DNA of 2,083 nt from a virus (taxonomy: Duplodnaviria; Heunggongvirae; Uroviricota; Caudoviricetes). This document shows positions 1 through 1,820 of this stretch, one piece after another. The position numbers were made by a program, and so were the translations under genes. Positions within the stretch are counted from its first letter, which is position 1. Each line of letters starts with the position of its first letter. The stretch lies in the IMG/VR virus record IMGVR_UViG_2711768034_000008. The stretch is one strand, 5' to 3'. A model generated the notes under the pieces. That model saw nothing but the letters and a program-made list of their open reading frames with translations, made no database searches and was not told the DNA's origin.

Positions 1-68
1 AAGATATGATGTGATGGCATTTTATAAAGTTATTTTTTGAAGTGTAAGATTATACGATATTTTTAGCT

Positions 69-100
69 ACGCCAGAATAATTGCTGGCGTTTTTCTTTTT
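69..100 (+). terminator. Candidate rho-independent terminator (tR'-like) upstream of the lysis genes
   Basis: Seen in sequence: 7-bp stem ACGCCAG (69-75) / CTGGCGT (84-90) with an 8-nt loop, followed directly by TTTTCTTTTT (91-100). Position about 90 nt upstream of the holin start fits the late-operon terminator that Q antitermination reads through in lambdoid phages (inference). Stem is short and not very GC-rich, so strength is uncertain. Confidence 0.4.
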
Positions 101-190
101 GAATAGATGTTCGGGCCTTACGCTAATGTAACTTCTTTCCTTCTTCGAACCAAACCGTGTACACCATCCGTTATCTGCGGAGGTGAGGCT

Positions 191-406
191 ATGAAATCCA
201 TGGATAAGTTAACAACGGGCATCGCCTACAGCACCTCTGCAGGCAGTGCTGGCTACTGGTTTTTACAGTTGCTCGATAAAGTCACGCCCTCACAGTGGGC
301 GGCAATAGGTGTATTGGGTAGTCTGGTATTTGGCATGCTGACGTATCTGACAAACCTTTATTTCAAGATTAAAGAAGACAGGCGTAAGGTTGCGAGAAGA
401 GAGTAA
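191..406 (+). CDS. essQ: Phage class II holin (pinholin), S21 / EssD / EssQ family, 71 aa, with dual-start antiholin/holin motif
   Basis: Translation [71 protein letters not shown]. Same length and architecture as phage 21 S21 and the E. coli prophage holins EssD/EssQ, recalled from memory: weakly hydrophobic Gly/Ala/Ser-rich TMD1, hydrophobic TMD2, basic C-terminal tail. Strong SD GGAGGT at 179-184, 6 nt before ATG 191; second in-frame ATG at 200. Stop TAA 404-406. The symbol essQ is a family-level guess based on pairing with an RrrQ-like endolysin; essD-like is also possible. Confidence 0.9.
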
Positions 407-410
407 TCCA

Positions 411-962
411 ATGACTCAAGACTATGAACTGGTTGTGAAAGGAGTTCGCAATTTTGAGAATAAAGTGGCGGTAACTGTAGCCTTACGGGACAAAAAACAC
501 TTTGACGGTGAAATTTTTGACCTGGACATCTCGCTGGACCGTGTTGAAGGTGCCGCGCTGGAGTTTTATGAGGCAGCAGCCAGAAGGAGCATCAGACAGG
601 TCTTCCTGGATGTTGCTGCCGGGTTATGTGAAGGGGATGAGCAGTCGCCGGAAAAGCGCCCCATAATTTTAGAGGCGCAGAATGTGTGGATAACCTACAA
701 AGGAAAGCTACCGGGAAGAATTACTGGTTCTCTGAAGACGCCACCGACGGCATTGCGGTCAGAAAAAGATGATATTGAATCGCCCATTGAAAAACTGGAG
801 GGCAGCGTCGCTGATCTGAATAAAAAATTGTCGGTGCTGATTCCTTCTGAAGATGAAAAAAAACGCCGCGATGAGCAGTTTGCGGCGTTTTACGATTATT
901 GCATTGAAGTTACTCGCAGGAATTTTGTGAAGATTTTTGAGGAGGGTAAATCTCTTCAGTAA
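411..962 (+). CDS. Hypothetical protein, 183 aa, hydrophilic and acidic, no predicted TM segment; translationally coupled to the holin
   Basis: Long open frame (MTQDYELVVKGVRNFENKVAVTVALRDKKHFDGEIFDLDISLDRVEG...FVKIFEEGKSLQ). ATG 411 lies 4 nt after the holin stop, preceded by an AGAGAG-like weak SD (398-404). Codon usage is broadly E. coli-like. I do not recognise the family. The track's TTG at 390 is a less likely start. Stop TAA 960-962. Confidence 0.6.
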   Translation: MTQDYELVVKGVRNFENKVAVTVALRDKKHFDGEIFDLDISLDRVEGAALEFYEAAARRSIRQVFLDVAAGLCEGDEQSPEKRPIILEAQNVWITYKGKLPGRITGSLKTPPTALRSEKDDIESPIEKLEGSVADLNKKLSVLIPSEDEKKRRDEQFAAFYDYCIEVTRRNFVKIFEEGKSLQ

Positions 963-1170
963 GCTTATTGGCGGACGCTGCAATTAATTCAGGAAGGTCC
1001 GCAAGGTCATCTGTCAGTGGATATGATGAAAAATCGGCGGCAGTTCTGTTAAGAAGCGCTTTAACTAATTCCTTTTCCTTCTCCGGCAACAAGTTGATTA
1101 GAGCTACGACTGCTTGCCTGAGTGCGATTAAATCAGCAAAAGTTTGTTTAGGTAGATTTGTGTAATCCAT
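910..1170 (-). CDS. Hypothetical small protein, 86 aa, acidic and predicted helical, encoded opposite to the lysis operon
   Basis: Minus-strand ORF MDYTNLPKQTFADLIALRQAVVALINLLPEKEKELVKALLNRTAADFSSYPLTDDLADLPELIAASANKLTEEIYPPQKSSQNSCE. ATG at 1168-1170 (plus-strand CAT) preceded by GAGG with a 5-nt spacer (minus-strand AGAGGCGACT-ATG). The region is visibly more AT-rich (roughly 37% GC in a 60-nt sample versus about 53% in the endolysin) and uses rarer codons (CTA, AGG, TTA), as horizontally acquired genes often do. The last 17 codons overlap the 3' end of the 411-962 gene. Family not recognised. Confidence 0.5.
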   Translation of the reverse strand: MDYTNLPKQTFADLIALRQAVVALINLLPEKEKELVKALLNRTAADFSSYPLTDDLADLPELIAASANKLTEEIYPPQKSSQNSCE

Positions 1171-1283
1171 AGTCGCCTCTGTGTTTATCAGATTGACATC
1201 CTCCTCCCGCCAGTGCCCATCACTGGTGAGGTAAGATTTAACATATCCGGGGATTTGAAGCCGATAAATCCTGATAAATATCC

Positions 1284-1820
1284 ATGAACGTAAAAATCAG
1301 ATACAGCCTGTCGGCCGCTGTTCTGGCACTGATTGCCGCCAGTGCTCCTGCCCCTGACATTCTCGATCAGTTTCTGGATGAAAAAGAGGGGAATCACACC
1401 ACTGCATACCGCGATGGCTCCGGCATATGGACCATCTGTCGGGGAGCAACGATGGTGGACGGTAAACCTGTTATTCCGGGAATGAAACTGTCGAAGGAAA
1501 AATGCGCCCAGGTTAACGCCATTGAGCGGGATAAGGCGCTGGCATGGGTGGAGCGCAATATAAAAGTTCCACTGACCGAGCCACAGAAAGCCGGTATCGC
1601 GTCATTCTGTCCCTATAACATTGGCCCTGGTAAGTGTTTTCCGTCGACGTTTTATAAGCGGCTTAATGCCGGTGATCGTAAAGGCGCATGCGAGGCGATT
1701 CGCTGGTGGATAAAGGACGGTGGACGTGATTGCCGCATTCGTTCAAATAATTGTTACGGTCAGGTTATTCGGCGTGACCAGGAGAGTGATCCTACCCACG
1801 TAATATGGACACAGGCCTAA
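1284..1820 (+). CDS. rrrQ: SAR endolysin (phage lysozyme, GH24 T4-lysozyme-like, R21 / RrrD / RrrQ class); 3' end fused to IS3 terminal sequence
   Basis: Translation [54 protein letters not shown]... N-terminus has basic residues followed by an Ala/Ser-rich weakly hydrophobic stretch (signal-anchor-release type). Catalytic triad Glu35 / Asp44 / Thr50 sits at the same positions as in phage 21 R21 (LEG...YKD...WTVC versus EKEG...YRD...WTIC here). The ORF is open to TAA 1818-1820, but from 1787 onward the codons are IS3 terminal-repeat sequence, so the last 10 residues ([10 protein letters not shown]) are not native. Symbol rrrQ is a family-level assignment from memory, not a database hit. No obvious SD upstream of ATG 1284. 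Confidence 0.88.

Follow-up and report, generated by a model that had tools for sequence, protein, structure and literature searches.

A probable accessory gene pair in the holin-endolysin gap of a Qin-type lysis cassette: resident ydfR and a portable convergent module

The viral record IMGVR_UViG_2711768034_000008 (IMG/VR, Caudoviricetes) supplied a stretch of 2,083 nucleotides (nt), referred to here as the window, in which a gap of 877 base pairs (bp) separates a class II holin gene from a signal-arrest-release (SAR) endolysin gene. Positions 411-1283 hold two open reading frames (ORFs), one of 183 amino acids (aa) on the plus strand and one of 86 aa on the minus strand. We conclude that this region is probably an accessory part of a Qin-type (phage-21-type) lysis cassette, in which a portable convergent module is fused to the resident gene ydfR and the genes act as a linked pair. 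An initial annotation had described the same positions as a two-gene insert of unknown function in a moron-like slot. Its ORF coordinates (183 aa, 411-962; 86 aa, 1170-910 on the minus strand), the 113-nt spacer that follows and the endolysin start at 1284 without a Shine-Dalgarno (SD) sequence are all borne out; the insert as drawn is not, since ydfR is resident and the extra DNA comprises only about 747-1222. Bases 1-1788 of the window are identical to the Qin-type cryptic prophage of Escherichia coli HS and of many other strains, and strain H2 matches the entire window at 100% identity. The gene order there, in the labels of the Prokaryotic Genome Annotation Pipeline (PGAP), is essQ holin, "YdfR family protein", "hypothetical protein" on the opposite strand and rrrQ lysozyme. 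The features that carry the argument are the following.

411-962, plus strand: intact long-form ydfR-family gene (183 aa), identified by PF07041, phrog_2091, 183-aa relatives and phage genomes
411-626, plus strand: YdfR N-domain (aa 1-72), three beta strands and a helix, the sole segment universal in the family
747-962, plus strand: C-terminal helical extension, "C-ext" (aa 113-183, 71 aa), the module's forward partner, an in-frame fusion to the DUF1327 core
910-962, both strands: convergent 3' overlap (53 nt) of the 183-aa and 86-aa genes, from the ORF coordinates
910-1170, minus strand: 86-aa reverse gene (phrog_2572), the module's reverse partner, acidic, with three predicted helices
856-891, minus strand: GC-rich hairpin, candidate terminator of the reverse gene, with a 10-bp stem (860-869/882-891) and a 12-nt loop, then a U-run
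1171-1283, minus strand: conserved 5' region of the reverse gene (113 nt) with a hairpin at 1208-1228, aligned across module types

Resident ydfR and the extra DNA

The 183-aa ORF, which begins 4 nt past the holin stop codon, had initially been placed in no family, with DUF1327 named as one to check. That pointer was correct: the protein is a member of the DUF1327/YdfR family, matching the Pfam profile PF07041 with 143.4 bits against a cutoff of 25 (E 2.6e-42) over aa 1-112, equivalent to profile positions 1-92 of 93, and phrog_2091 over its full length (183/183, E 8e-112). It is acidic, as had been noted (isoelectric point (pI) 5.2). Relatives of 183 aa were found at 78-95% identity, and the gene is carried by the complete, plaque-forming-type phage genomes PhiR63_1 and 2H10, with a variant form in the PhiR12 series and in PhiR5_1.

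PGAP calls only 411-746 of this gene, as a pseudogene ("incomplete; missing C-terminus"), in every RefSeq genome inspected, and the same call is placed on the long ydfR of loci L001, L002, L010 and L012-L015. In the loci labelled in this way the 183-aa ORF, or one of 211 aa, is intact and matches phrog_2091 from end to end, and the calls look like a systematic mis-annotation arising from a short family model.

YdfR is a mosaic family, with lengths of 103, 114, 116, 171, 176, 183, 211, 268 and 296 aa, whose members have only the first ~70 residues in common and then continue into interchangeable tails. The N-domain of the window protein is identical to that of E. coli K-12 YdfR at 61 of 72 residues (85%) and was modelled by AlphaFold2 (AF2) with a predicted local distance difference test score (pLDDT) of 63-84; the model of the whole 183-aa protein (pLDDT 52) was too poor for a structure search.

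In phage-21-type cassettes, including those of K-12 Qin and of the O157 Shiga toxin phages, ydfR is the normal occupant of this slot and not an insertion. The K-12 Qin prophage has essQ, ydfR and rrrQ tightly packed, with ydfR abutting rrrQ. Its YdfR (b1555) occupies the same essQ-rrrQ slot and has the same N-domain as the window protein, but it measures 103 aa, has an unrelated C-terminal half and is directly adjoined by rrrQ, whereas the window protein continues into a second DUF1327 segment (aa 73-112) and the 71-aa extension and is followed by the reverse gene. The O157 prophages carry a 114-aa ydfR in the same slot, without C-ext, and phage records show this gene order too.

At the DNA level, homology between the window and K-12 covers 162-616 and resumes at 1274. 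Set against the O157 form, the window has an extra stretch at ~747-1222, with boundaries at 746/747 and ~1222/1223, which takes in the final 71 codons of ydfR and the 86-aa gene along with the proximal part of its upstream region. A comparison of the gap across prophages, as had been proposed, does reveal a unit that is present or absent with defined boundaries, but the unit is not the whole pair of ORFs. It was found in 314 of the 5426 complete E. coli genomes (~6%), at 90-100% identity, and in 8 of the 100 phage records that have a YdfR N-domain.

The O157 junction reads CCACCG/CTGGCC, its left half corresponding to window 741-746 and its right half to 1223 onward, and a CCACC-type microhomology is present at both edges of the extra DNA (741-745 and 1217-1221). 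Judged from these sequences, the 114-aa ydfR forms would most simply be deletions of 747-1222 between the microhomologies. Such a deletion would also cut through the loop of the 1208-1228 hairpin (window 741-746 and 1217-1228; L008 1480-1515). Other short ydfR forms have different ends after the same SLKTPP residues (ESQP or EF, then the stop codon), which suggests several independent events.

The convergent module and its reverse gene

A second arrangement of the same genes occurs in Salmonella prophages and in related gut-type metagenome contigs, where the order is endolysin, DUF2514 Rz, a 73-aa forward gene, a 93-aa reverse gene and the cos/DUF1441/terminase region. The 73-aa and 93-aa genes are convergent and overlap by 59 nt in both the Salmonella and the metagenome versions. 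The endolysin of the Salmonella-type cassette belongs to GH19, its holins (holin_8, holin_3_7) are unrelated to that of the window, and the 73-aa gene overlaps Rz by 1 nt. The 73-aa protein is homologous to C-ext (BLASTP E 9e-6, residues 37-71 of both), and the ratio of nonsynonymous to synonymous substitution rates (dN/dS) of its gene, 0.32, indicates purifying selection. C-ext itself matches phrog_36381 and phrog_15975. On contig L024 a similar tail, fused to a K-12-type ydfR, faces an 89-aa homologue of the reverse protein and is followed by a SAR endolysin. The module, ~540 bp in size, is composed of the forward helical gene represented here by C-ext, the reverse three-helix gene and its 5' region, and in the window the forward gene is fused to the DUF1327 core.

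Every module type has a conserved stretch of some 115 nt on the 5' side of the reverse gene, and this is true even of the Salmonella copies, which lie beside no endolysin; the distal 50 nt of 1171-1283 are also retained in the O157 cassettes that lack the module. On the other side of the gene, the hairpin at 856-891 lies 18 nt past the stop codon (RNAfold -14.6 kcal/mol, z -1.9), and an equivalent hairpin is found ~20 nt past the reverse-gene stop in every module type, with a weak U-run in the Salmonella types. A terminator scan missed the window hairpin because its loop is longer than 8 nt.

The 86-aa protein, which like its neighbour had been assigned to no family, matches phrog_2572 over its full length (86/86, E 4.4e-53), and Salmonella-type members match the same family (E 6e-24 and 8.5e-40). 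The PHROG families of both proteins are catalogued with no function assigned. The ORF has its own SD sequence (GAGG, 6 nt 5' of the ATG) and is richer in AT, both as first described, although its GC content of 0.41-0.43 is only modestly lower than that of the ydfR core (0.49) and of the endolysin gene R (0.52). Its length is not beyond chance, because mechanical ORFs in the window reach 74, 69 and 65 aa, and its reality therefore rests on comparative evidence.

That evidence is of several kinds. The ORF is represented in 18 protein clusters and 8 phage records and is intact in every E. coli or phage allele examined. A profile search of 1.8 billion proteins returned full-length homologues of 89-93 aa at 40-49% identity, and a further search added more homologues from Salmonella; the start codon, the SD site and the acidity (pI 4.6-4.7; 4.6 for the window protein) are kept across them. 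AF2 predicts three helices with a mean pLDDT of 76. Variable sites among the alleles fall at codon positions 3:1:2 in the ratio 12:6:4, dN/dS is 0.3-0.6, and the length variants differ by in-frame indels only. Within an EKEKE stretch (window 1083-1088 region) whole EK units vary between alleles of 84, 86 and 88 aa; these indels most likely reflect slippage of a 6-nt repeat and so say little about constraint on the reading frame.

A plus-strand ORF of 65 aa (968-1165) lies antisense to the 86-aa gene and has its wobble positions in common with it, so that third-position periodicity cannot separate the two. It starts 5 nt past the ydfR stop, with TTG here and ATG in most alleles, and is open in the E. 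coli alleles. Replacements are more radical in this frame than in the 86-aa frame (summed BLOSUM scores of -11 and +3, respectively), the minus-strand protein aligns better than the plus-strand frame across distant homologues, and a stop codon interrupts the latter in the Salmonella locus L025. Because of this stop, taken with the quality of the replacements, the 65-aa ORF is judged to be a shadow, and by comparison of sequences the 86-aa ORF is a real gene. Two weak Pfam matches of its product, to DUF1823 and GCIP_C, are far under their cutoffs, which leaves the "DUF1823" label of the PhiR phage records without support; a literature search found no paper on the PhiR phages.

Two other reverse ORFs occur in the place and orientation of the 86-aa gene, likewise converging on the 3' end of a YdfR variant, but both are rarer: one of 70 aa (phrog_18136) in 45 and one of 106 aa (phrog_1853) in 27 of the 5426 complete E. 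coli genomes, compared with 314 for the 86-aa segment. The 70-aa ORF of locus L011 (2170-2385, minus strand, MRDGCLAKII...) runs into the 3' end of a 176-aa ydfR variant, and PGAP does not annotate it there; this type has the upstream region from window 1208 rightwards in common with the module. The three types of reverse ORF show no homology to one another by BLASTP or hhalign. A reverse gene is missing beside the 296-aa ydfR form, and tblastn found no remnants of the C-domain of that form, of the K-12 C-terminal half or of the other reverse ORFs in window 963-1283. The ydfR slot is a mosaic hot spot, with a fixed N-domain, interchangeable tails and at least three unrelated reverse genes.

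Two further loci illustrate the rearrangements in this slot. In strain RM10466 (L009, 2450-3418) the holin is followed by a 222-aa forward gene without a DUF1327 domain, whose product has the coiled-coil start motif of C-ext and ends in the C-domain of the 296-aa ydfR forms; the 106-aa reverse ORF (phrog_1853) converges on it. In the Salmonella locus L020 (3001-3561) a deletion joins approximately codon 25 of the 86-aa gene to the antisense of the "SEDE" codons of ydfR, which leaves a 139-aa ydfR and destroys the reverse gene; the holin there is of a different family (PF16080).

Possible function and competing explanations

Searches for a known function gave little. PADLOC-DB contains no family matching the 183-aa protein, the 86-aa protein or C-ext at E up to 0.1, NCBIfam has no match for any of the three, neither protein has a defence, toxin-antitoxin (TA) or structural match, and structure searches were empty. 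Rfam returned merely two chance-level matches (ncr1175 and GcvB, E ~0.85). Both proteins are hydrophilic, with grand average of hydropathy values of -0.2 and -0.47.

The experimental lead comes from K-12: in two-hybrid and co-purification experiments the catalytic half of ribonuclease E (RNase E) is reported to bind YdfR through residues 1-72, and RNA co-purifies with the protein, which may thus bind RNA as well; ydfR is silent in uninduced cells (2026, PMC13232886). This result points to modulation of RNA decay rather than to lysis. Phage proteins that modulate RNase E include T7 gp0.7, phiKZ Dip and T4 Srd. YdfR would resemble them as a phage-encoded RNase E binder, if the K-12 result transfers to the window protein, but it has no sequence or fold similarity to them and would be made late, with the lysis genes.

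The two genes of the window could work together as follows. The forward partner would be expressed from the Q-antiterminated late transcript, along with the holin and the endolysin, while the reverse partner would behave like a moron: with late transcription off, its own conserved 5' region would drive a transcript running counter to the late operon. The link between them may lie in helical proteins that bind each other, with the helical tail of YdfR as a partner-binding or oligomerisation domain and the acidic 86-aa protein as its counterpart, or in convergent transcription and an RNA duplex formed in the overlap, which might lead to mutually exclusive expression states. Such a pair would tune the action of YdfR on RNase E and late mRNA, rather than lysis or defence. 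A more specific version, which we offer as a tentative idea with a low chance of being right, is that C-ext and the 86-aa protein are a late helical effector on an RNase E-binding domain and its opposite-strand antagonist, which are expressed in a mutually exclusive manner and time the redirection of host RNA decay.

Convergent regulatory pairs with overlapping 3' ends are known, for example lambda cII/oop and Bacillus subtilis txpA/RatA. The module is similar to these in having convergent units, a 3' overlap of ~55 nt and a hairpin inside the coding region of the partner; it differs in that both partners are conserved proteins, with no small hydrophobic toxin or short non-coding RNA among them.

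Several observations weigh against a joint function of this kind. The RNase E link was measured solely with K-12 YdfR, whose first 72 residues are 85% identical to those of the window protein, and few transcripts change when K-12 YdfR is overproduced (PMC13232886). For the reverse gene, no sigma-70 promoter with at least 9 of 12 consensus positions was recognised in the E. coli or Salmonella copies. Its candidate terminator shows one compensatory GC-to-AU change with 95% of cells paired, a shuffle control being non-significant, and the stem doubles as coding sequence for a conserved RR..AA peptide. The AF2 helices of C-ext (123-143 and 147-182) are of low confidence. In the 296-aa and 222-aa proteins the front half of C-ext is present although the reverse gene is not, and the Salmonella locus L020 has lost most of the reverse gene yet kept ydfR, which by itself suggests that the reverse gene is dispensable. 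The direction of change, insertion or deletion, is read solely from a microhomology of 5 nt. It could also be that both genes persist together merely through their physical overlap.

The explanation first given for this region, a foreign moron cassette between holin and endolysin that encodes superinfection exclusion, anti-phage defence or a TA-like pair, is one that we regard as unlikely. Part of it holds, in that related cassettes may have or lack the segment, which includes a small, independent reverse gene for an acidic protein, with lower GC, an SD site, a conserved 5' region and a terminator-like hairpin; the two unrelated reverse ORFs at the same position in other strains are likewise what a moron hot spot would show. 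The 183-aa ORF, however, is resident ydfR, which leaves at most its tail and the reverse gene as extra DNA, and the forward partner is always coupled to the late genes. No support was obtained for a defence, TA or exclusion function: the PADLOC, NCBIfam and structure searches named above were empty, and the pair lacks the marks of a type II or type I TA system, its genes being convergent rather than in an operon and its proteins both hydrophilic, with no toxin or antitoxin domain in Pfam, NCBIfam or PADLOC and no membrane segment. A collinear sequence-profile match in the PDB to the anti-CRISPR AcrIIC4 could be cited in favour of this explanation, but it is non-significant (E 0.12) and has no structural support.

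In position and orientation the reverse gene is comparable to a lambdoid moron. Lambda bor is a reverse-strand gene located just after Rz, and the moron concept is that of Hendrix and colleagues. The 86-aa gene is like bor in being small, reversed, located within or near the late lysis genes, variably present and slightly lower in GC, with an SD site and a hairpin and T-run, and the Salmonella copy of the module stands exactly at the post-Rz position. It is unlike bor in that its product has no signal peptide or lipobox and is predicted to be an acidic cytoplasmic three-helix protein, that no promoter was recognised and that the gene shares a conserved 3' overlap with a forward late gene.

A cytoplasmic role in lysis timing, in which the late-made long YdfR modulates the pinholin or SAR endolysin and the reverse gene or its antisense transcript keeps leakage of the endolysin low in the lysogen, seems to us quite improbable. 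Translational coupling links the forward gene to the holin in the window (4-nt gap) and to Rz in the Salmonella cassettes (1-nt overlap), the module is always found within a lysis cassette or at its end, the 5' region of the reverse gene abuts the endolysin start in E. coli, and antisense RNAs to endolysin genes are known in other phages (review PMC12197685). These points are offset by the company the module keeps, which includes unrelated holins and endolysins (GH19, holin_8, holin_3_7), and by its position downstream of the endolysin in Salmonella; most cassettes of this type do without it, neither protein has a membrane segment, and the sole experimental lead for YdfR concerns RNase E and not the envelope.

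The idea that the region is merely decaying DNA, with ydfR a truncated pseudogene and the 86-aa ORF a chance or shadow ORF in a non-coding remnant, could draw on the PGAP calls, the cryptic state of the prophage, the IS3 element inside rrrQ, the 65-aa ORF with its common wobble positions and the other mechanical ORFs of 65-74 aa, but it is largely refuted and highly improbable, given the full-length phrog_2091 match and many intact relatives of the 183-aa ORF, the complete phage genomes in which both genes are intact, the reverse homologues that at 40-49% identity keep start, SD site and length while the shadow frame is broken in L025, and the dN/dS below 1 in both genes with indels in frame.

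The linked-pair explanation does not imply a new defence system. The novelty appears to lie in the concept of the module, in the fusion and in the structure of the hot spot. The long ydfR, now a PGAP pseudogene, and its partner merit proper family models, and one of the alternative reverse genes has no PGAP annotation in the locus inspected. The variants of the slot form a defined natural set for testing the role of YdfR. It is unusual for a late operon to contain a conserved pair of convergent protein genes whose 3' ends overlap, and such a pair could be a simple built-in switch.

Endolysin, holin and flanking sequences

Two context genes border the gap.

191-406, plus strand: class II (phage 21 S-type) holin gene essQ (PF04971, E 3.3e-34; essQ also in PGAP), outside the module
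1284-1788, plus strand: SAR endolysin gene rrrQ (PF00959, E 2.7e-24), its last 9 codons replaced by IS3 from 1789

The endolysin start at 1284 is not preceded by a purine-rich SD sequence, and the spacer 1171-1283 (113 nt), read on the plus strand, is its SD-less leader. The initial annotation saw in this the trace of an insertion that displaced the original upstream context. The absence of the SD sequence stands, but the displacement does not: because O157 cassettes without the extra segment have the same 50-nt SD-less leader at 93% identity, the leader is a family trait and not an insertion scar. Directly 5' of the ATG, at 1254-1283, the leader contains a tandem GATAAAT-CCT-GATAAAT, which is conserved in Salmonella modules that have no neighbouring endolysin and might serve the reverse gene as part of a promoter or the endolysin as a ribosome standby site.

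The holin begins with MKSM (window 191-202), which offers two possible starts, Met1 and Met4. In phage 21 S a dual-start layout serves the antiholin and holin forms.

Upstream of the holin, window 1-190 is AT-rich (GC 0.31) and contains a strong terminator-like hairpin with a T-run (69-90), ~100 nt 5' of the holin gene. This is the usual place of lambdoid late leaders (tR'-type). No Rfam family matches region 1-190. The prophage "Pas" small RNAs (sRNAs) of a 2026 preprint are located where this hairpin sits, and the papers on prophage sRNAs place them upstream of the holin, not within the holin-endolysin gap.

At the other end of the window, the right end of IS3 starts at 1789 (TGATCCTACCCACG...), where it replaces the last nine residues of the endolysin, ALTCWGIEQ. 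The C-terminus of the IS3 transposase (rve_2) forms a 71-aa ORF on the minus strand at 1817-2032.

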